Assembly (NCBI GenBank): GCA_964291395.2 | Contig: OZ219856.1 | Location: 2,208,001-2,272,000, forward strand | DNA length: 64,000 nt | Source: Alphaproteobacteria bacterium | Lineage (GTDB): Bacteria; Pseudomonadota; Alphaproteobacteria; UBA2966 | Direction of reading: 5' to 3' | In this document: positions 801 through 38,868 of the stretch, piece after piece | How positions within the stretch are numbered: position 1 is the stretch's first letter | Layout: every line of letters begins with the position of its first letter | Translations under genes and position numbers: made by a program | Notes under the pieces: generated by a model | What the model was told of the DNA's origin: nothing | The model's input: the letters and a program-made list of their open reading frames with translations, nothing else | Databases searched by the model: none

Positions 801-1090
801 CAGGTGAGGTCGGCAGATCGGCCCGTGGAGTGGTCACGCTCGATCGCAAGGTCAGCGTCGGTCAGAGGCGAAGCACGGAGGAAAGCGACCAGCTCGGAGC
901 CTGTCTTCGCCCGTGGTGCAGTCAGCCTCTGCTGCAGGGATCGGCGGATGAGTTCGGCTTCCTCGCCGCCGGAACAAAGGGCGCCAGCGATTGCCTTGAC
1001 GAGGGCTGCGTCTTGTAGGGGTACTGTGACTTCGACGCGCCTGGCGCCGCCAGTGGAGATCCTCTTGCGGTGACGGGAGGCACGGGACAT
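800..1090 (-). CDS. Putative antitoxin of the VapC module (96 aa)
   Basis: MSRASRHRKRISTGGARRVEVTVP...FLRASPLTDADLAIERD. Its stop overlaps the vapC start (TGATG), which is typical type II TA coupling. Confidence 0.7.
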   Translation of the reverse strand: MSRASRHRKRISTGGARRVEVTVPLQDAALVKAIAGALCSGGEEAELIRRSLQQRLTAPRAKTGSELVAFLRASPLTDADLAIERDHSTGRSADLT

Positions 1091-1135
1091 CTGTTGAGTC
1101 TTCAGACTTGAAGGGTCCACGACAGTGTATACATC

Positions 1136-1279
1136 CTGCAGCATTTCAAGGGAAGCCGGCTGTCCTTCGAGGATGTCTTCGAACGGGCCCGCGGGCTTGA
1201 GGACCGGGATCGGGCGAGCGCGTTCCCCGCGGTGTTTCGGCCGGTTTTCGAGCGCTACCAGGAAAGCCTTGCCTGTTGA
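1136..1279 (+). pseudogene. Short fragment resembling a UvrD/helicase IV internal segment
   Basis: Not in the ORF track. Translates as LQHFKGSRLSFEDVFERARGLEDRDRASAFPAVFRPVFERYQESLAC*, like the segment preceding the 'IDFxDMI' motif of helicase IV-like proteins. No start codon. Confidence 0.4.
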
Positions 1280-1302
1280 TCGGCATGAAAAAGTGACCCC
1301 AT

Positions 1303-1779
1303 TTGGAGGTACTTGTTTTGGCCAAACCAACTCACGAATCCCGTGCCCCGAATGCCGGGCGCTGGCAATACCAGATACGCGTCGAACTGACCGATGGAGC
1401 CGCGGAGGCGGCAAGGCGGGGGGAGAGCGCTCCAGACCTCGGACCTCTCGCCGACATACTCGAACGGCACGACGCGGATCTGAAATGCCAATACGATGCC
1501 TTCGCCGGCTATTGCGCCGAAGCGGAGCAACGGGGCATCGACAAATATCCGCTGTACGCCTGGACCAAGGCCACGATGGAAGATCCCGCCAAGAAGGCGA
1601 AATACACCAGGTCCTTCACGATTCACGTCAAGGGCGAAGAGGTCTATGCCAAGGAAAGGGCCGAGGCGCTGGAGGCTGATTTACGGCTTCTGGTCGGTGG
1701 CAAGGTCGTGACGAAACTGGCGAAGCACGACACCAATCCAGCCAACAACCCGCAGCCGCCGAAACGGTATCGCTCTTGA
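1303..1779 (+). CDS. Conserved-looking hypothetical protein
   Basis: Protein-like composition and GC3-rich codons (WQYQIRVEL...KCQYDAFAGYCAEAE...YPLYAWTKAT...HDTNPANNPQPP). Start position is uncertain. Confidence 0.7.
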   Translation: MEVLVLAKPTHESRAPNAGRWQYQIRVELTDGAAEAARRGESAPDLGPLADILERHDADLKCQYDAFAGYCAEAEQRGIDKYPLYAWTKATMEDPAKKAKYTRSFTIHVKGEEVYAKERAEALEADLRLLVGGKVVTKLAKHDTNPANNPQPPKRYRS

Positions 1780-1940
1780 GGATCGGCCGCTCCCATCCGC
1801 GCTCTGGGCGTCGTTCGGGCCGCGGCCGGGCAACGATGTCAGGCTGTCGCGCGACGTGCGGCAGAACCGGTTCGGTGGTTCGGAAACGCCTCGAACTCCC
1901 CCCAAAAAAATTCCGAATACAGTCCCGGAGTCGTCCGGAT

Positions 1941-2906
1941 TCACTGGTCGTGACTGGATCGCGGGACGCTCGGGCGCGGGGCGACGTCACGAAGATTGGC
2001 TCGCTCGACGAGCGCCTCTCCCATCGGTTCCGGCTCCTCGTCTTCGGCGACAGCCACCCACACCTTGAGGCTCGATTCTCCGCCACCGTACACGACGCCT
2101 CGGGTCGGTGAGGCGTCGTCATAGTCCCGGCCGACGGCAGTGCGGATATGCCGGTGATCGACGCGTGTATCGTTGGTCGGATCGATCCCGATCCAACCCA
2201 TGTCCGGGAGCAGAAACTCGGCCCATGAATGGCTGGCGCCGACTTGCGCCTGCTCGCCCCTCGCTCCCTCGAGGTGGAGATACCCCGACACGTAACGGCT
2301 CGGAATCCCCCAAGACCGGGCGATGGCGATCATCACGTGGGTGTAGTCCTGACAGACGCCACGCCCCGTCTCCAGGACTTGCTCGATGGATGAATCAACG
2401 GCGGTGCTTCCCGGTTCGTAGGTGAACGCGGCATGGAGGATCGAGGCCGTTTCCAGGAGCGAGCACAGAGGGCCGGCACCGCGACGGATACCGTTGGCCG
2501 CGGTAAACGAGTCGAGAGCCCGGCAGGGGTACGCGAAGCGACTGGGCCTCAAGTACTCCCAATGACGAATCGGATCCACCATGTCCACGAGCGCGTCCCA
2601 ACTCTCCCTTTCCGACCTCCCCGCGGGAGCCGGCGCGTCGGCTACCTCGACCTGCGACCGCGAATGCACGATTGCCCGCCGGTGCTCCCGATGGACGTTG
2701 AGCAGGTGACAGACATTACCGAACGAATCCTTGAAGGCGGCAGGAGATGCGAACGGATCTATGTCGAGGTTGAACGCCAAGATCCGCTGGCGCTGGTCCT
2801 CACGCGGCCGCAGCCGGAGTACCATCAGGCTTCCGTGCGCCGGATCCTGGTAGCTGAATTCGGAGACGTGCCTGACCAGGTACCGTCGCGCTCCCTGCGC
2901 ACTCAT
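1941..2906 (-). CDS. Transglutaminase-like protein (N-terminal domain + catalytic core)
   Basis: GVCQDYTH...IPSRYVSGY...SHSWAE...GIDPTN carries an intact Cys-His-Asp triad, plus the GRDYDDASP motif. Confidence 0.93.
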   Translation of the reverse strand: MSAQGARRYLVRHVSEFSYQDPAHGSLMVLRLRPREDQRQRILAFNLDIDPFASPAAFKDSFGNVCHLLNVHREHRRAIVHSRSQVEVADAPAPAGRSERESWDALVDMVDPIRHWEYLRPSRFAYPCRALDSFTAANGIRRGAGPLCSLLETASILHAAFTYEPGSTAVDSSIEQVLETGRGVCQDYTHVMIAIARSWGIPSRYVSGYLHLEGARGEQAQVGASHSWAEFLLPDMGWIGIDPTNDTRVDHRHIRTAVGRDYDDASPTRGVVYGGGESSLKVWVAVAEDEEPEPMGEALVERANLRDVAPRPSVPRSSHDQ

Positions 2907-3883
2907 GGTTTCGGGCTATCCTCTATCGCGTAGTCGAAATAGGCCGCCTCGACATCGTCGTGGAGCTTACGGCATGAGGCCCGGATTTCCATGAGCGTCG
3001 TTCTCGTGGCGTCATCGTCCTCGGGGTCCCGGTTCGGCCAATCGTAGTCGATGCGCGCTGCCATGCGTCCCGCCCCGCGTCCCGCCTCGACGGCGAGCGG
3101 CTGGCGTGAGGAGATCGCGTCGAGCGCATCCCAGACCCGCGCCAAGGCATATCGGATCGAGCGAGAAAGCAGCGGATCGGCAACGACGAAATCGACCACG
3201 GCCGTGGGCTGGAACTGAAGCGAATGGAGGCGGCTGTATGCGACCCGAGCGTCGCAGATTTGAAGCAAAGAGCGCCAGACCGACTCGATATGGTATTCAC
3301 TGGTCGGAAAGACGGTCAGCTGGGCGTCCACCAGCGCAGCAACAAGCTGAGCCCGCTCGACGAAACGACCGAGTTGCATGAAATGCCAGCCGTCATCTCG
3401 GTACATGGTGCTGTCGGTGATGCCCGAAAAGGTTCGAATCGCGTTCTCCGTACGCAGATAGAATTCTTCCGGCCGGTCTCTCCAGATGTCATCGACCTCG
3501 ATATCGCGCAGGCCGAGAAACGCGATATTGAGGCAAGACCACATGTCCTTGCCGACGACGTTACGTACCTGGCGGGCGTTCTCCCGAGCCGAAGCGAGAC
3601 AGTTCCGGATGCCATCGGGATTGCTGGGCTCGAAGGTCAGGTCGGCGGCGAGGGTATAGGCGTCCGCCAGCATGAATTGCTCGTCCCCGAGATTCGATTC
3701 CAGATCGCCTCCCACCGGTGTGCGGACGAGCCCGATGTACAGGCGCCGCCAACACCGGTCTATCTCCTCGACCGGCCGATCCTCAAGAACTCCGAACTGG
3801 TCCGCGAGCAGGCGACAGCTGTGCTGCGCCCGTTCGAGGTAGCGGCCGATCCAGTAGAGACCCCGGGCGCTCCGCGACAGCAT
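2903..3883 (-). CDS. Alpha-E domain protein (DUF403)
   Basis: MLSRSARGLYWIGRYLERA, ARENARQVR and LGRFVERA (duplicated ER motifs). ATG at 3883; 4-nt overlap with the downstream gene. Confidence 0.92.
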   Translation of the reverse strand: MLSRSARGLYWIGRYLERAQHSCRLLADQFGVLEDRPVEEIDRCWRRLYIGLVRTPVGGDLESNLGDEQFMLADAYTLAADLTFEPSNPDGIRNCLASARENARQVRNVVGKDMWSCLNIAFLGLRDIEVDDIWRDRPEEFYLRTENAIRTFSGITDSTMYRDDGWHFMQLGRFVERAQLVAALVDAQLTVFPTSEYHIESVWRSLLQICDARVAYSRLHSLQFQPTAVVDFVVADPLLSRSIRYALARVWDALDAISSRQPLAVEAGRGAGRMAARIDYDWPNRDPEDDDATRTTLMEIRASCRKLHDDVEAAYFDYAIEDSPKP

Positions 3884-3887
3884 ATCG

Positions 3888-5402
3888 TTACGCGGACAAC
3901 ACCCAGAGATCTTTTCCGCCGCCACCCTGACTTGAATTGACGACGAGCGAGCCGGGGGTGAGGGCAACCCGGCAGAAGGCTCCCGGAACCAGGTGCGTTT
4001 CACGCCCCCGCAGCACGAAGGGGCGGAGGTCGACATGACGCGGCGCGGTGCCATCATCCGTCAGACAAGGTGCGCAGGAAAGGTCCAGGGTGGGTTGGGA
4101 TATGAAGTTGGCCGGGTTTTTCCGAATCTCTTCGGCATAGGCCGCGCGCTCAGCAGGCGTGGCATGCGGTCCGATCAGCATGCCATAGCCGCCCGAGCCG
4201 CCGACCACCTTGACGACCAGCTGATCGAGGTTATCGAGCGTGTATTCCATCTGTTCGGGGTCTCGGCAAAGGTGCGTCTCGACGTTGGCGAGCAACGGCT
4301 CCTCGTTCAGGAAATAGCGGATCATGTCGGGAACGTAGGCATAGACACTCTTGTCGTCAGCCACTCCGGTCCCCGGGGCGTTGGCGATGGCGACATTTCC
4401 AAGCCGGTAGGCGTAGAAAAGCCCAGGCGTGCCGAGCTGCGAATCGGGACGGAAAGCCAACGGGTCGAGGAAGTCATCGTCGATCCGGCGATAGATAACG
4501 TCGACGCGCCGTAGTCCGCCCGTCGTCCGCATGTAGACGAACCCGTTGTGGACCAGCAGATCTCTCCCCTCCACGAGTTCCACACCCATTTCGCGGGCGA
4601 GAAACATGTGTTCGTAGAAGGCCGAATTGTGCACGCCCGGAGTCAGAAGGACGATGCAGGGATCGGAAATGCCGTTCGGCGCGAGCTCAGCCAGGGTGTG
4701 ACGGAGCAGCGTGCCGTAGTGCTCGATGCTGCGTACGCGGTGCCGACGGAACAGGTTGCGAAGACTGGTTTTCACCGTCCGGCGATTGGCCAGCATGTAA
4801 GAAACCCCGGACGGCACGCGCAAATTGTCTTCCAGGACCAGGAAGCCGTCGCGCGTCCGCACGAGGTCGGTCCCGCAGACACTAACGTAGGTGCCGTGGG
4901 GAACCTGAACGCCGCGCATGTCGATGCGGTACTGCGGGCAGTCACGCACCAGGTCCACGGGTATGACGCCGTCCTCGAGTATCCGTCCAGGACCGTAGAT
5001 ATCGGCCAGGAACAGGTTCAGCGCCTCGAGCCGTTGCCGCAGTCCGCGTTCGATGAAATCCCAATCCTCGGCGTCGATCAGCCGTGGGAGGACGTCGATC
5101 GGAATGATCCGTTCTTGCGCGCCTTTCTCGTCGTAGACGGAAAACGTGATGCCGTCCTGCAGGAACGATCGCTCCGCGCGTTCCTGCATGTTCGCCACCT
5201 CGACATGAGTCATGCCCCCAAGAGCCGTCCACAGCTCTCGGCAGTGTTCGCGGGGAGTCCCCGCGTCATCGAACATCTCGTCGTAGAAGGCGGGGTCGGT
5301 CTCGTAACCGTCGAAAAGATGCCCACCACCGCCCATCTGATCACCGCTCGCCGCCGATACGACCGACGGCGGCGTTACCTCGTTCGGCTTTTTCGATTCC
5401 AC
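3888..5402 (-). CDS. Circularly permuted type 2 ATP-grasp protein (DUF404/DUF407)
   Basis: LEDNLRVPSGVSY, VDVIYRRIDDDFLDP, GVADDK, HVDLRPF, VVNSSQGGGGKD. Confidence 0.95.
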   Translation of the reverse strand: MESKKPNEVTPPSVVSAASGDQMGGGGHLFDGYETDPAFYDEMFDDAGTPREHCRELWTALGGMTHVEVANMQERAERSFLQDGITFSVYDEKGAQERIIPIDVLPRLIDAEDWDFIERGLRQRLEALNLFLADIYGPGRILEDGVIPVDLVRDCPQYRIDMRGVQVPHGTYVSVCGTDLVRTRDGFLVLEDNLRVPSGVSYMLANRRTVKTSLRNLFRRHRVRSIEHYGTLLRHTLAELAPNGISDPCIVLLTPGVHNSAFYEHMFLAREMGVELVEGRDLLVHNGFVYMRTTGGLRRVDVIYRRIDDDFLDPLAFRPDSQLGTPGLFYAYRLGNVAIANAPGTGVADDKSVYAYVPDMIRYFLNEEPLLANVETHLCRDPEQMEYTLDNLDQLVVKVVGGSGGYGMLIGPHATPAERAAYAEEIRKNPANFISQPTLDLSCAPCLTDDGTAPRHVDLRPFVLRGRETHLVPGAFCRVALTPGSLVVNSSQGGGGKDLWVLSA

Positions 5403-35443: not shown

Positions 35444-35955
35444 CTACAGCAGCTTGACCAAGGCCACGATCAGGCCGCCCTGGGCGATCAGCGCGCCGAA
35501 CAGCCATTTCAGAAGGTCGGCCTTGACCGCCTCGATGCTGGCTCTGGTCTCCTGCCGCAAGGCTTCCATGCCGGCCTTGACTTCTGCGATATCGGCCTTG
35601 GTCTCCTGCCGCAAGGCTTCCATGCCGGCCTTGGTCTCCTGCCGCAAGGCTTCCATGCCGGCCTTGACTTCTGCGATAAGGCTTCCATGCCGGCCTTGAC
35701 TTCTGCGATATCGGCCTTGGTCTCCTGCCGCAAGGCTTCCATGCCGGCCTTGACTTCTGCGATATCGGCCTTGGTCTCCTGCCGCAAGGCTTCCATGCCG
35801 GCCTTGACCTCTGCGATATCGACCTTGGTCGCCAGATTGGCGTTGAGCAGGGCGACATGCTCTTCGGCCAGGGTCTCCGCCTGCTTCTCGGTGAAGCCGC
35901 TCTCCGTCAGGCGCTTGACGAAGCGGTGGGTGTCGAAGGCGATGGCCTCGGTCAT
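35444..35955 (-). pseudogene. DUF1640/CCDC90-like coiled-coil membrane-anchored protein, frameshifted inside its repeat
   Basis: Head MTEAIAFDTHRFVKRLTESGFTEKQAE..LATK, repeated stalk, and anchor LLKWLFGALIAQGGLIVALVKLL in a different frame. A 22-bp deletion at about 35678 shifts the frame. Confidence 0.85.
35546..35830. repeat. Near-perfect mosaic tandem repeat of 33-bp and 21-bp units (54-bp composite)
   Basis: Units GGTCTCCTGCCGCAAGGCTTCCATGCCGGCCTT (AGMEALRQETK) and GACTTCTGCGATATCGGCCTT (ADIAEVK) recur about 5-6 times each. Confidence 0.95.
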
Positions 35956-36037
35956 GCTCCGATCATAGGAAGCCCGCCGGTGCGGGACAAGGACCATCGC
36001 GCCGGACGGCCCGATGAAAGCTTCGTTCATGCCCCTT

Positions 36038-36062
36038 TCACTTACGGGTGTCACTTACGGGT
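36038..36062. repeat. Direct repeat TCACTTACGGGT x2 adjoining a TTGACT (-35-like) hexamer
   Basis: 36038-36049 and 36051-36062 are identical; TTGACT at 36062-36067 lies about 40 nt upstream of the riboswitch. Confidence 0.6.
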
Positions 36063-36106
36063 TGACTGTGCGATACCCTTCTGCTTCAACTATCGGCTCA
36101 GGACGC

Positions 36107-36236
36107 GCTCATCCAGAGCGGTGGAGGGACAGGCCCTTTGAAACCGCGGCAACCGCTACGAGCGGTGCCAATGCCTGATCGATGAGTCAGCCGAAGGCGG
36201 AACCCCGCTCTCGGCGCTCTTAGATAGAGCGCGTAG
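36107..36236 (+). ncRNA. SAM-I superfamily riboswitch (SAM-I/IV-like architecture)
   Basis: CTCATCCAGAGCGGTGGAGGGACAGGCCCTTTGAAACCGCGGCAACC...GGTGCCAA closely follows the SAM-I consensus. P1 is GCTCATC/GATGAGT (36107-36113/36181-36187). P4 is absent. A 3' hairpin lies at 36214-36232, and GTAG (36233-36236) is complementary to CTAC at the P3 tip. Confidence 0.88.
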
Positions 36237-36259
36237 GAAGCGAGAGAGGAGACCGCCAG

Positions 36260-36337
36260 ATGATGGTCCTGTGCTCCCCATTCGGGGCCGATTTCCGCGA
36301 CATGTCCGCACCCGGCCGTTCGGTCGGCGGTACCTAG
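36260..36337 (+). other. Possible 25-aa uORF/leader peptide MMVLCSPFGADFRDMSAPGRSVGGT
   Basis: GAGAGGAG RBS 8 nt upstream of ATG 36260, immediately 3' of the riboswitch; TAG at 36335-36337. Confidence 0.4.
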
Positions 36338-36456
36338 TTCGCTCCGCTGCCTGAGAGACGGGAAGGACCGCCGGTCCTCCGAGCCGTTCGTTCCACGATC
36401 GTCCCGATGCCGGCCCTTCCCATTCCCCAGAGTCGAATCTCAGTGAGGAGAATCCC

Positions 36457-37020
36457 ATGACCACAACCTCAGAGAAGCCTGCCGGAAACGGCGTCAACGT
36501 CGAAGCCCTGCTCAATGCGCGCGATGCATTGGGCGAGACGCCGGAAGCCGGCAAGTTCATGTGGCGGGCCACCAACGAGTGGCTGCACGGTACCCATAGC
36601 CGGTCCTCGGTAACGGGCTACTTCGGCTTGGGCGAAGAGCACTCGCACAAGTCGGCCTTCGGCTTCGAGTCGGATCATCCCCTCGTGTTCGCCGCCGAGG
36701 ACAATGCCGCCACGCCGGTCGAGATCGTCCTCGTGGGGCTGGCGAGCTGCCTGACGGCCGGCGTTGCCGCCGTCGCCCAGAATCGGGACATCCAGCTTCG
36801 ATCGGTGAAGGCAACGGTCGAAGGCGACATGGACATCCAAGGCATCCTGGGCGCCGATCCCGACGTCCGGAACGGCTTCAGCGGCATCCGGGTCAAGTAC
36901 GACATCGATGCCGACGCCACTCCGGACGAGATCGAGGCGCTGGTCGCCCAGTCGCAGAAGCGCTCGGCGGTGTTCGACATCCTGACCAACCCGACGAACG
37001 TGACCGTCGAGGTCGGCTGA
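36457..37020 (+). CDS. OsmC family protein (single Cys)
   Basis: NGVNVEAL, SDHP..F, TPVEIVLVGLASCLTAG, VEGDMDI.GILG..VRNGF, KRSAVFD; GAGGAG RBS. Confidence 0.9.
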   Translation: MTTTSEKPAGNGVNVEALLNARDALGETPEAGKFMWRATNEWLHGTHSRSSVTGYFGLGEEHSHKSAFGFESDHPLVFAAEDNAATPVEIVLVGLASCLTAGVAAVAQNRDIQLRSVKATVEGDMDIQGILGADPDVRNGFSGIRVKYDIDADATPDEIEALVAQSQKRSAVFDILTNPTNVTVEVG

Positions 37021-37028
37021 TCGCCGCC

Positions 37029-38282
37029 ATGCGCACGACCACCGTCGTGGTCGGAGCCGGGCATGCCGGCCTTGCCGTAAGCCATTACCTCGCCGCAAGC
37101 TCGATCGACCACGTGTTGATCGAGCGCGGCGAGGTCGCCAATTCGTGGCGAACGGAGCGATGGGATTCGCTGAGGCTGCTCACCCCGAATTGGCAGGCGC
37201 GGGTCCCCGGTCTCGCCTACGACGGAGACGACCCCGACGGCTTCATGGACATGACCGAGGTGGTGACGTTCATCGAACGCTACGCCCGGCTCGTCGCGCC
37301 GTCGCTCGAGCCCCATACCACCGTCGAATCGGTTCGGCGGAATGGAACCGGTTACCAGGTGGTGACGGATCGCGGGGTGTGGCACGCTCCCACGGTGGTG
37401 CTCGCCACCGGCGGCTTCAATATCCCGAAGGTTCCCCCGTTCGCGGCGGACCTTCCCGGATTCGTCATGTCCTTCACCCCGATGCAGTACACGAAGCCCT
37501 CCGCCCTTCCGGACGGGGGTGTCCTGGTCGTAGGCGCGTCGGCCAGCGGGGTACAGATCGCGGAAGAAGTTCACGGCTCCGGTCGCCCGGTGACGTTGGC
37601 GGTCGGCGAGCACGTCCGCATGCCGCGGACGTACCGCGGCAAGGACATTCTGTGGTGGATGGATCGGACCGGGCTCCACGACGAGCGGTATGACGAGATA
37701 GACGACATCGGACGGGCGCGCCGGGTTCCGGCGCCCCAGTTGGTGGGAAAACCCGAGCGGACCACGCTGGACCTGAATGCGCTCACCGATCAAGGCGTGC
37801 GCCTGGTCGGTCGGTTGGTCGGGATCGCGGACGGCAAGGCCCTGTTCTCGGGCTCGCTTCGCAACAAGTGCACCCTCGCCGACCTCAAGCTGGGACGCCT
37901 CCTCGACACGATCGACGAGTGGGTCGGCAGCAACGGCCTCGACGGCCAGGTGGAGCCGGCGCAGCGTTTCGCGCCGACGCGGGTCGAGGAGTCCCCGCCG
38001 TTGGTGCTCGACCTCGCCAAGGGCGGAATCTGCACGGTCATCTGGGCCACGGGGTTCGAGCCCGACCATTCGTGGCTCCACGTGCCCGTTCTCGACCGCA
38101 AGGGCCGGCTCCGCCATGACGGCGGGGTGGTAAGCGGCTCGCCCGGGCTCTACCGCATCGGCCTCAACTTCCTGCGGCGCCGCAAATCGAGCTTCATCCA
38201 CGGGACCGGGGACGACGCCTGCGATCTGGTTGGGCACTTGGCCGCCCGGGTCGGAGCCCGCCCTCCGGGCCCACCGGGGTGA
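37029..38282 (+). CDS. FAD/NAD(P)-dependent oxidoreductase, flavin monooxygenase (TrkA/CzcO)-like
   Basis: VVGAGHAGL, WRTERWDSL, LATG, VLVVGASASGVQIAEE, PRTYRGKDI, IWATGF. Confidence 0.9.
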   Translation: MRTTTVVVGAGHAGLAVSHYLAASSIDHVLIERGEVANSWRTERWDSLRLLTPNWQARVPGLAYDGDDPDGFMDMTEVVTFIERYARLVAPSLEPHTTVESVRRNGTGYQVVTDRGVWHAPTVVLATGGFNIPKVPPFAADLPGFVMSFTPMQYTKPSALPDGGVLVVGASASGVQIAEEVHGSGRPVTLAVGEHVRMPRTYRGKDILWWMDRTGLHDERYDEIDDIGRARRVPAPQLVGKPERTTLDLNALTDQGVRLVGRLVGIADGKALFSGSLRNKCTLADLKLGRLLDTIDEWVGSNGLDGQVEPAQRFAPTRVEESPPLVLDLAKGGICTVIWATGFEPDHSWLHVPVLDRKGRLRHDGGVVSGSPGLYRIGLNFLRRRKSSFIHGTGDDACDLVGHLAARVGARPPGPPG

Positions 38283-38337
38283 CGCGCCGGACGGCGGCCG
38301 GCCGCTTTTTCGAGATCCCGGCCGGCGCGCCCGGCGA

Positions 38338-38868
38338 TCAATCTTCCAAGATTTCGTAGGCCAAGCCCTGCTCGTTCTTCCAGATCTCGGTATGGGACTC
38401 GGTGTACGCGACTCCATGCCCCATGACGAGGCGGTTGATGAAGTTGTAACGCCCACAGACGGCGATCGCGAAATGGAGCGCGCCCTCCTCCCAACCGGCC
38501 TCGTAGACGGCATCGGCATCCGCCTGGACCATCTTTGCCGGCGTCAGCGTGAGCTTGCGGACGAAGCGCAAAATCGGCTTCATCCTTTCGTCTACCGACG
38601 AGGAGTCGATATCGTCCATGAGGTTGTCGAAGACATCCGCATCGACGCCGAAGGCCTCGGCGGCCATGGTGTGATCCTTGAAGCAATACTCACAGTCGTT
38701 CAGGCCCGAGACATAGGCTGCGACCAGCTCGCGTTCCGCAATCGATAGCGGTCCGGGCCCCCGCATGAGGGCCTGGCTGAATTTTCCCCATAGCAGCCAG
38801 ATGTCACGATGCGGCGCCTGTATCTCTGCGAGGCCCGCGCTCGCGGGCAATGAAGGAAAAAAGGTCAT
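38338..38868 (-). CDS. AhpD/carboxymuconolactone decarboxylase family peroxidase-related protein
   Basis: ERELVAAYVSGLNDCEYCFKDH (CxxC..H), KLTLTP, FINRLV. Confidence 0.9.
   Translation of the reverse strand: MTFFPSLPASAGLAEIQAPHRDIWLLWGKFSQALMRGPGPLSIAERELVAAYVSGLNDCEYCFKDHTMAAEAFGVDADVFDNLMDDIDSSSVDERMKPILRFVRKLTLTPAKMVQADADAVYEAGWEEGALHFAIAVCGRYNFINRLVMGHGVAYTESHTEIWKNEQGLAYEILED

Follow-up and report, generated by a model that had tools for sequence, protein, structure and literature searches.

A SAM-I riboswitch without P4 and its putative target, an operon for a one-cysteine OsmC-like protein and a flavoprotein

What does a riboswitch for S-adenosylmethionine (SAM) control when the genes behind it are not classical methionine, cysteine or SAM genes? 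The question is posed by a locus in a 64,000-nucleotide stretch of an Alphaproteobacteria bacterium genome (assembly GCA_964291395.2, contig OZ219856.1, forward-strand positions 2,208,001 to 2,272,000), hereafter the window, from whose first letter all coordinates are counted. On its + strand, a structured RNA leader precedes a gene for a one-cysteine OsmC-like protein (36457-37020, 187 amino acids) and a gene for a flavoprotein resembling flavin-containing monooxygenases (FMOs; 37029-38282, 417 amino acids). Judged by its sequence and predicted structure, the RNA is a genuine SAM-I (S-box) riboswitch in a natural form that lacks helix P4, and it is followed by a conserved Shine-Dalgarno (SD) sequence and start codon that open a short upstream open reading frame (uORF). 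Our favoured reading, held with somewhat better than even confidence, is that it acts as a translational OFF switch on this leader ORF and hence on an OsmC-flavoprotein operon that would belong to the MetY branch of a methionine regulon.

A SAM-I aptamer without P4

A covariance-model search, which an earlier reading of this DNA made from its letters alone (the sequence-only reading) had proposed, places the Rfam SAM-I model RF00162 at 36106-36188 (+) in an end-to-end alignment scoring 72 bits (E 7e-15), well above the gathering score of 44.4. The helices were placed in an alignment of homologous leaders comprising the window and 14 others (15 sequences): P1 at 36107-36113/36181-36187, a kink-turn (K-turn)-type P2 in two parts, P2a at 36118-36122/36143-36147 and P2b at 36126-36128/36134-36136, and P3 at 36148-36157/36161-36169, all on the + strand. 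Across the 15 homologues these helices are 98-100% paired, covariation shows in the two distal P3 pairs (8 and 5 double changes), and the K-turn consensus letters in P2 align with the model. Pseudoknot PK-1 joins CAGG in the P2 loop (36130-36133) to CCTG in J3/4 (36174-36177). The 17 consensus positions that make up the entire P4 are deleted in the RF00162 alignment, ATC alone stands between the 3' strand of PK-1 and that of P1, and the four-way junction with P4 that marks membership of the class is absent. The sequence-only reading had thus rightly described a SAM-I core without P4; the mismatch it saw in PK-1 is not there, as CAGG and CCTG pair at every position and do not vary in any of the 15 homologues.

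The same model scores 64.9-73.9 bits on eight genome homologues and 67.7-75.8 bits on 19 of the 20 metagenome loci tested (one, L150, has masked bases). Within the 4.16-Mb window genome, a whole-genome search gave no second RF00162 match, and the two SAM-II matches there, a weak one of 23 bits (G000:C3:1070804-1070881, where G000 is the window genome) and one of 16.6 bits, lie below the cut-off of 36, leaving no convincing second SAM riboswitch.

The sequence-only reading had assigned the RNA to a SAM-I/IV-like class, with P5 and a second pseudoknot, PK-2, in place of P4. Membership of SAM-I/IV or SAM-IV would suit the junction without P4, the hairpin 3' of P1 and the 4-nt complementarity (GTAG/CTAC) between P3 loop and tail in the window, yet we find it hardly credible. 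Neither RF01725 (SAM-I/IV) nor RF00634 (SAM-IV) has a match at E<=1 anywhere in the genome, and RF00162 wins with its 72 bits. The complementarity exists in the window, but across the 15 homologues PK-2 is paired in 56.9% of cells, as against 96-100% for real helices, with 8 of 10 lettered cells unpaired at one of its pairs; we count the proposal as already refuted by this covariation count and read the window's GTAG/CTAC as chance. Likewise, the hairpin taken for P5 is present (36214-36232) but belongs to the expression platform, and its 5' arm is dispensable in homologue L052. PMC6890682 describes SAM-I/IV as lacking the K-turn, PK-1 and split P2, whereas the window RNA keeps K-turn and PK-1. 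With no match to either model, PK-2 unkept and K-turn and PK-1 retained, the RNA is a P4-less SAM-I rather than a SAM-IV or SAM-I/IV element, and it would be expected to bind SAM.

Such a form is an ordinary, already described variant. SAM-I aptamers with 'very short or no P4', functional without it, occur in a group of Actinomycetota (PMC12714719), and the window copy shares their P1-P2(K-turn)-P3 core with PK-1 and a score far over the gathering cut-off; our literature search found no further description of P4-less SAM-I beyond that paper. The interest lies in what is controlled. In metagenomes, the same variant heads ThrC-like, MetH, MetE and MetY genes. The window copy differs from known SAM-I riboswitches in sitting in an alphaproteobacterium-like genome that has no other SAM-I, in a class described in PMC2258182 as almost devoid of SAM-I, in apparently governing a leader ORF rather than a gene's own start, and in preceding genes outside the classical methionine, cysteine and SAM set.

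Expression platform and leader open reading frame

The approximately 75 nt 3' of P1 are conserved almost as strongly as the aptamer, in both Alphaproteobacteria and Acidimicrobiia. Aptamer and platform are near-invariant between the two phyla while their flanks diverge, which argues for selection. Three + strand elements make up the platform: a sequestor 5' strand (36196-36213; GGCGG ... CCGCTCTCG), a local hairpin (36214-36232, 96.7% paired across the 15 homologues) nested in the sequestor helix, and the SD region with its spacer (36241-36259, with GGAG at 36248-36251), where SD and start are conserved and which forms the sequestor 3' strand. Pairing of 36196-36213 with 36241-36257 appears in the constrained and unconstrained folds of most homologues, and with P1 enforced nearly all of them form it around the hairpin; the two parts of this helix reach 69% and 86.4% pairing and include some double changes. 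An RNAalifold consensus offers a second helix of 7 bp, in which CGCGCTC (36104-36110, +), overlapping the 5' strand of P1, pairs with GAGCGCG (36227-36233), that is, with the 3' arm of the hairpin extended to 36233; none of the seven pairs varies in any of the 15 homologues. Homologue L052 lacks the hairpin's 5' arm and retains the 3' arm GAGCGCG, and both of its sequestor strands carry, by eye, matching changes.

These elements suggest how the switch would work. With SAM bound, P1 would hold, 36196-36213 would pair with the SD and spacer (36241-36257) around the hairpin, and the ribosome would be kept off the ATG at 36260. With SAM absent, CGCGCTC would pair with GAGCGCG, the 3' strand released from P1 would fold locally, as would the sequestor strand, and the SD would open and the leader ORF be translated. 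The folds agree in direction. Forcing P1 to form gives SD and start a mean unpaired probability of 0.32, forcing the alternative helix gives 0.52, and a few kcal/mol at most separate the two ensembles. In this comparison, made without a shuffled control, the SAM-free fold has the more open SD window for 14 of the 15 homologues, L069 going the opposite way. Moreover, in many metagenome copies the SD-ATG of the platform is the start codon of ThrC-like, MetE or MetH genes, which must be shut off by SAM, and this supports OFF logic. Given folding and invariance, an OFF switch by SD sequestration is plausible.

In the window, the SD leads into an ORF of 25 codons (36260-36337, +) beginning Met-Met-Val-Leu-Cys. 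The SD and start codon are kept at the platform in 16 of 16 riboswitch-bearing genome loci, the start codon lying 4-12 nt after the controlled SD in every one and opening an ORF of 1-60 codons, so that what is conserved is a short ORF whose SD and start are embedded in the platform, the hallmark of a riboswitch-controlled uORF. Fifteen loci have 20-60 codons here; L017 (L017:3866-3997) has nothing more than a start and a stop, ATG TGA, behind the controlled SD, which suggests that ribosome loading rather than the peptide matters. The uORF stop falls within -7 to +27 nt of the osmC start, abutting or overlapping it, in 8 of 15 loci, and clearing the uORF in silico opens the osmC ribosome-binding site in such abutting loci (in L010, for example, from 0.32 to 0.81). 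In the window and six other loci, a gap of 82-163 nt separates the two and the effect of clearing is small (0.45 to 0.60). The window's intervening leader (36338-36456, +; 119 nt) has a weakly conserved structure: for five close relatives, RNAalifold arrives at -19.6 kcal/mol with a single small conserved hairpin. Behind metagenome riboswitches, each of the 18 OsmC-type genes is preceded by a long leader (190-355 nt), and a simple search found a short ORF at the platform in 15 of these leaders. L069 carries on its opposite strand a second riboswitch, whose platform is the same and whose uORF, of 21 codons, precedes a MetY-like gene. Leader translation would, in our proposal, lead to expression of the OsmC-like and FMO-like genes, by coupling or re-initiation in relatives whose uORF abuts osmC; across the window's 119-nt gap, the link could be protection from Rho or RNases. 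Dependence of the downstream genes on the uORF is thus a prediction from sequence.

There is precedent for such an arrangement. In Mycobacterium tuberculosis, B12 riboswitches control uORFs before metE and ppe2 (PMC11260477): there, too, the switch acts on translation of a short upstream ORF on which the downstream gene depends, for ppe2 by termination-reinitiation; comparable here are the 8 of 15 homologues whose uORF adjoins or overlaps osmC. The ligand and aptamer are different, and the window uORF ends 119 nt upstream.

In actinobacterial-type leaders, the uORF holds a kept stretch, Met-Cys-x-Cys ... Ser-Arg-Val, whose codons (ATG TGT ... TCY CGG GTG) hardly vary. Of 97 riboswitch instances, 16 have it, and an OsmC-type gene follows in 12 of these sixteen (L069:3801-3960 (+), L070, L095, L104, L105, L117, L121, L122, L126, L133, L141, L145, L150, L156, L160 and L163). 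These codons form the 5' arm of a long hairpin with the 3' arm CCACCC-RR-GAG, and by eye the Ser codon, TCC or TCT, changes together with G/A in the 3' arm; part of the motif is conserved as RNA. Of this region the window uORF retains Met-Met-Val-Leu-Cys-Ser-Pro only. The cysteine content of the uORFs, 6.6-8.0% against our own rough estimate of ~3% for random GC-rich frames, is modestly enriched. Cys-codon-rich short ORFs precede mycobacterial sulfur-metabolism operons, where they are described as attenuators (bioRxiv 10.1101/834739); the actinobacterial relatives of the window leader resemble them in carrying Met-Cys-x-Cys and differ in that the uORF is not leaderless and has a riboswitch-hidden SD. 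The actinobacterial hairpin could be a second, ribosome-dependent sensor.

Recurrence of the pair and its methionine context

The gene pair was followed in 80 loci, each in a different species genome; the groups represented are Alpha-, Beta- and Gammaproteobacteria, Acidimicrobiia, Thermoleophilia, Gemmatimonadota and Acidobacteriota. The flavoprotein gene comes directly after osmC in 78 of them, the other two being cut by contig ends, and a P4-less RF00162 element lies 130-400 nt upstream in 14 (nine alphaproteobacterial, five from Actinomycetota). Thirteen of the 14 were found with a regular expression for the core, seven of these being Rfam-confirmed at 68-74 bits; the last, L017, emerged when the 67 loci left over were all scanned with Rfam. 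The pair loci scanned yielded no SAM riboswitch of another class. Among 41 related genomes, RF00162 has a match in three (G000, G005 and, at another locus, G021), and an OsmC orthologue is present in two, G000 and G005, the same two that carry the riboswitch at this locus. Recurrence elsewhere, on which the sequence-only reading had made its proposal depend, is therefore found both in these 14 genome loci and in metagenomes.

A quick maximum-likelihood tree of the flavoprotein (72 rows, those outside 380-450 amino acids being left out; the tree addresses neither root nor direction) has the riboswitch-bearing rows all in one half, with the alphaproteobacterial ones forming a single clade (Shimodaira-Hasegawa-like approximate likelihood ratio 98) next to an Acidimicrobiia row. 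The pattern fits one old association that was kept, and transferred between phyla along with the operon.

Twelve Acidimicrobiaceae/Acidimicrobiales loci that have no riboswitch (L024, L028, L029, L034, L035, L042, L045, L048, L061, L065, L073 and L075) have, upstream of the pair and on the same strand, ORFs of one cluster (about 1050-3900); of the two L024 ORFs scanned, one encodes a cytochrome P450 and the other a methyltransferase with a fused AhpD-like 'peroxidase-related' domain, which makes a four-gene cluster with the pair. The pair also stands without a riboswitch in L058, whose record is from Saccharopolyspora rosea, a culturable carrier. Cyclic di-AMP riboswitch matches of 73-75 bits a few kilobases from the OsmC loci in L076 (7297-7436) and L104 (12074-12224) are probably unrelated.

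What else the P4-less form controls places the pair in a methionine setting. The junction pattern occurs in at least 119 metagenome stretches, and 80 loci with 82 instances were examined. The first gene downstream belongs to the threonine-synthase (ThrC) family of pyridoxal-phosphate enzymes in 24 instances, is OsmC-type in 18, MetH-like in nine, MetE in three and MetY-like in two; in nine the contig ends before any ORF, and several small clusters are without a family assignment. The commonest of these products (L086-L165), an enzyme of ~412 amino acids whose representative scores 305 bits with NF006050 and 294 bits with TIGR00260, looks like a ThrC paralogue in methionine or homocysteine synthesis.

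The 18 OsmC-type instances divide into two groups. Five are orthologues of the window gene (~70% identity), with the flavoprotein gene next in four and the contig cut in L150; an orthologue instance in L089, found by Rfam, comes in addition to these five pattern-matched ones. The other 13 are a paralogue of 172 amino acids at ~30% identity, with the same N-terminal extension, the same single Cys and a Ser at the place of the second Cys. Where sequence suffices, the paralogue is followed by O-acetylhomoserine sulfhydrylase (MetY), recognised by Pfam in L102, L104, L141 and L156 (632 bits with TIGR01326 in L156) and represented in L163 by an equally long ORF; the L141 copy is followed by a gene for a MetX-like acetyltransferase. 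The paralogue thus opens metY operons that have no flavoprotein gene. In L089, L156 and L163, two divergent riboswitches stand side by side, one heading the paralogue operon and the other the orthologue and flavoprotein genes; L156 and L163 are near-identical, so that these are two independent cases. L069 is likewise a divergent double-riboswitch locus, with metY, and five of the 80 genome loci have a MetY-like gene no more than 4 kb away.

The window genome itself has two MetY genes above cut-off. NIR_SIR and NIR_SIR_ferr have no match in it at 98.1% completeness, and a PAPS-reductase-domain match is weak (37 bits); the organism may do without assimilatory sulfite reduction and depend on reduced sulfur. 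A tie of the pair to SAM, methionine and sulfur supply, which the sequence-only reading had put forward, is well supported by the 14 genome loci, the metagenome instances, the metY operons and the MetY neighbours, and these several lines of sequence evidence point to membership of the methionine regulon in its direct-sulfhydrylation (MetY) branch.

The nearest parallel is the bhmT-osmC-ordL locus of Pelagibacter, where osmC lies behind SAM riboswitches, adjoins a gene for an FAD oxidoreductase and was the most induced gene under sulfur limitation (PMC5069961, PMC2704228). There, the riboswitches are SAM-V and SAM-II, osmC is the second gene after bhmT, and OrdL is described as a deaminating oxidoreductase (PMC5069961), of another family than the FMO-like protein here; the parallel is one of genomic context. 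Our literature searches on SAM riboswitches with OsmC found only this Pelagibacter work to be relevant, although supplementary regulon tables may list OsmC genes, and found nothing joining OsmC with O-acetylhomoserine sulfhydrylase.

Protein features, competing readings and meaning

The OsmC-like protein matches PF02566 at 66.7 bits. Its single cysteine, Cys98, is invariant in 81 of 81 sequences, has a PVE motif nine residues upstream and aligns with the first, peroxidatic Cys of Ohr/OsmC chains, and the invariant Ser170 stands at the position of the resolving Cys, aligned with a Cys of 1LQL. Two claims of the sequence-only reading hold here, namely that the second Cys is replaced and that a flavoprotein gene (the Pyr_redox_3 ORF at 37029-38282, 82.7 bits) starts 8 nt after the OsmC-domain ORF. 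The whole family thus shares with two-Cys OsmC/Ohr hydroperoxide reductases the Pfam domain and the peroxidatic Cys, and differs from them in the Ser and in an N-terminal extension of ~70 residues. The nearest and only close structure is 2OPL, a 'hypothetical protein', and matches to characterised OsmC/Ohr structures are marginal (E 0.13-0.4). The family is large, with at least 8000 scored matches, the best 120 of which have at least 74% identity; identity is at least 70% across phyla. The window genome contains four other OsmC-domain genes (five in total), and database annotation of the proteins (Protein Atlas) gives generic family names only.

The flavoprotein model (AlphaFold2, mean predicted local distance difference test 91.7) has the two-dinucleotide-binding-domain fold of class B enzymes. 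Its best Foldseek matches are type II FMOs (4USR, 4USQ and 4A9W/4C5O; E ~1e-22, template-modelling score 0.61-0.67), with which its N-terminal half also aligns by sequence, and the second-best fold is the YpdA/Bdr disulfide reductase (E 2.7e-19). From these enzymes (SMFMO, 4A9W, among them) it is set apart by 18-21% identity, by ~60-80 extra residues and by its constant pairing with an OsmC-like gene. Curated NCBIfam cut-offs are missed for MSMEG_0569 (TIGR04046, 350.6 against 498), ArsO (NF040505, 108.5 against 425) and YpdA (TIGR04018, 49.3 against 340). Cys281 is kept in 93% of 75 flavoprotein sequences. In L067 (4588-5811), the flavoprotein frame has an in-frame TAG at codon 218 and may be a pseudogene or an assembly error. 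A complex prediction of flavoprotein, OsmC and FAD scored 0.16 and 0.10 against a mark of 0.32 and counts neither way.

For the pair's chemistry, we propose a sulfur or redox relay based on Cys98 and driven by NAD(P)H through the flavoprotein, which would supply or safeguard reduced sulfur when SAM is low. The protein features fit a Cys relay fed by NAD(P)H, and also fit an oxygenase with a peroxide-handling partner.

A serious, if doubtful, alternative is that the pair is not concerned with sulfur supply and serves as an NAD(P)H-driven peroxide defence, a one-cysteine OsmC peroxidase with its dedicated flavoprotein reductase; a shortage of SAM or sulfur would induce it, either as an antioxidant that spares thiols or for the protection of the methionine pool. 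The OsmC domain with its universal peroxidatic-position Cys and PVE motif, the likeness of the flavoprotein to YpdA/Bdr together with its one well-kept Cys, and the many pair loci that have no riboswitch (66 of 80) all speak for it, as does the reading of the Pelagibacter OsmC as a peroxidase by the authors of PMC5069961. It is weakened by the absence of the resolving Cys throughout the family, the marginal matches to characterised OsmC/Ohr structures and the four other OsmC-domain genes of the genome, and a stress peroxidase would leave unexplained why the paralogue comes first in metY operons that have no flavoprotein.

Another option takes up the chemistry of the sequence-only reading, in which sulfur is freed from an organosulfur compound: the flavoprotein would be a genuine FMO whose S-oxygenation of a thioether, sulfoxide or sulfonate-type compound allows sulfur recovery, with OsmC handling a peroxide or sulfenate by-product. 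Type II FMOs give the best sequence and fold matches, an S-allyl-cysteine S-oxygenase is among the matches, and both induction at low SAM and the lack of NIR_SIR-type matches would fit sulfur scavenging. We nevertheless think it quite unlikely. The FMO signature motif has a His before the second GxGxxG; the invariant Tyr154 keeps the Tyr of the signature, and by eye the His was not seen at its expected place. The curated ArsO, MSMEG_0569 and YpdA cut-offs are not reached, no substrate clue emerged, and the surroundings of the pair conserve neither a transporter nor a lyase nor a desulfonating gene, the two genes alone recurring.

A bolder extension, which we rate as unlikely, makes the leader peptide itself a sensor, combining SAM, read by the riboswitch, with the charging of Cys- or Met-tRNA, read by ribosome stalling; the Met-Cys-x-Cys stretch of the actinobacterial uORFs, directly ahead of the conserved long hairpin, is what suggests it. 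The controlled one-cysteine OsmCs, whether they stand alone ahead of metY or are joined by an FMO-like flavoprotein, would then be an unrecognised sulfur-delivery or persulfide-handling step of methionine synthesis by direct sulfhydrylation. If true, it would also explain osmC as the top sulfur-limitation gene of Pelagibacter.

Around the operon, signals are sparse. A -35-like hexamer, TTGACT (36062-36067, +), ~40 nt 5' of P1, may be a promoter element, and TTGAC is retained in the same-genus locus L004 despite diverging flanks. A sigma-70 scan of 35900-38450 found no + strand promoter anywhere, a result that is uninformative for this organism, also as regards an internal promoter. The operon appears to end at a terminator-like GC hairpin followed by a T run (38286-38312, +). 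The next gene (38338-38868, -) is convergent and AhpD/CMD-like, scoring 80.4 bits with TIGR01926, just under the cut-off of 81.8. Upstream, a coiled-coil CCDC90-like/DUF1640 gene (35509-36054, minus strand) contains a ~57-nt head-to-tail repeat at 35700-35830 with, by eye, at least two full copies. The AhpD/CMD-like gene, a 247-amino-acid ORF and the DUF1640-like gene of the window had no tblastn match at E<=1e-4 in the 80 loci and L004.

Ten public runs hold at least half of the sampled words of 36038-38300, seven of them labelled sponge metagenome, and one metatranscriptome library is among these seven; the host organism is probably sponge-associated. Contig pieces from RNA libraries cover 36296-36956, with two differences, and parts of the flavoprotein gene, and none of them joins the aptamer to osmC. 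These are metatranscriptome contigs in which DNA carry-over is possible, whose depth is not comparable and which cannot show transcript starts.

Set against our proposal of an OFF switch acting through the leader ORF on a sulfur-related pair are the following points. The alternative helix never varies and so offers zero covariation, and the folding comparison, with its one dissenting homologue, lacks a shuffled control. In the window, the uORF ends 119 nt before osmC, which has a good SD of its own, about half unpaired whether or not the uORF is occupied (0.45 against 0.60); the leader C/G ratio of 0.75-1.29 is not clearly Rho-like, nor is it diagnostic; and control of osmC by the switch is a deduction from sequence that an internal promoter could bypass. 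The best fold matches of the flavoprotein are oxygenases, not reductases. Finally, 66 of the 80 pair loci have no Rfam riboswitch at all, so that the job of the pair is not bound to SAM control, and on the flavoprotein tree the riboswitch label needs only one to three gains or losses, so that the 14 loci may reflect one inherited and transferred event rather than repeated invention.

The leader-related points would be accounted for if the riboswitch of the window governed the 25-codon leader ORF only, or were a transferred relic, and osmC and the flavoprotein gene were SAM-insensitive under signals of their own. The 119-nt gap, a strong osmC SD that is about half unpaired whatever the uORF occupancy and the weakly conserved leader structure are what one would then expect, and the RNA-library contig that starts at 36296 inside the leader and runs into osmC is a weak hint in the same direction. 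We regard this as distinctly improbable, given that aptamer and platform stay near-invariant between two phyla amid diverging flanks, that riboswitch and operon were gained or lost together among the 41 relatives, and that all 18 metagenome OsmC-type genes share the long-leader design.

Few guides to methionine and sulfur genes are as reliable as the regulons of SAM riboswitches. The one described here would bring into view two related one-cysteine OsmC-like families, one of them always accompanied by an FMO-like flavoprotein, in a SAM regulon next to MetY. It would also provide a concrete SAM-I example, suggested by sequence, of a riboswitch acting through a leader ORF, a mode otherwise documented, as far as we found, for mycobacterial B12 riboswitches, and the alphaproteobacterial clade beside an Acidimicrobiia copy fits a riboswitch that travels with its operon in transfer between phyla. 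The ten-year-old puzzle of why sulfur starvation in Pelagibacter induces osmC more than any other gene (PMC5069961) thereby becomes testable.

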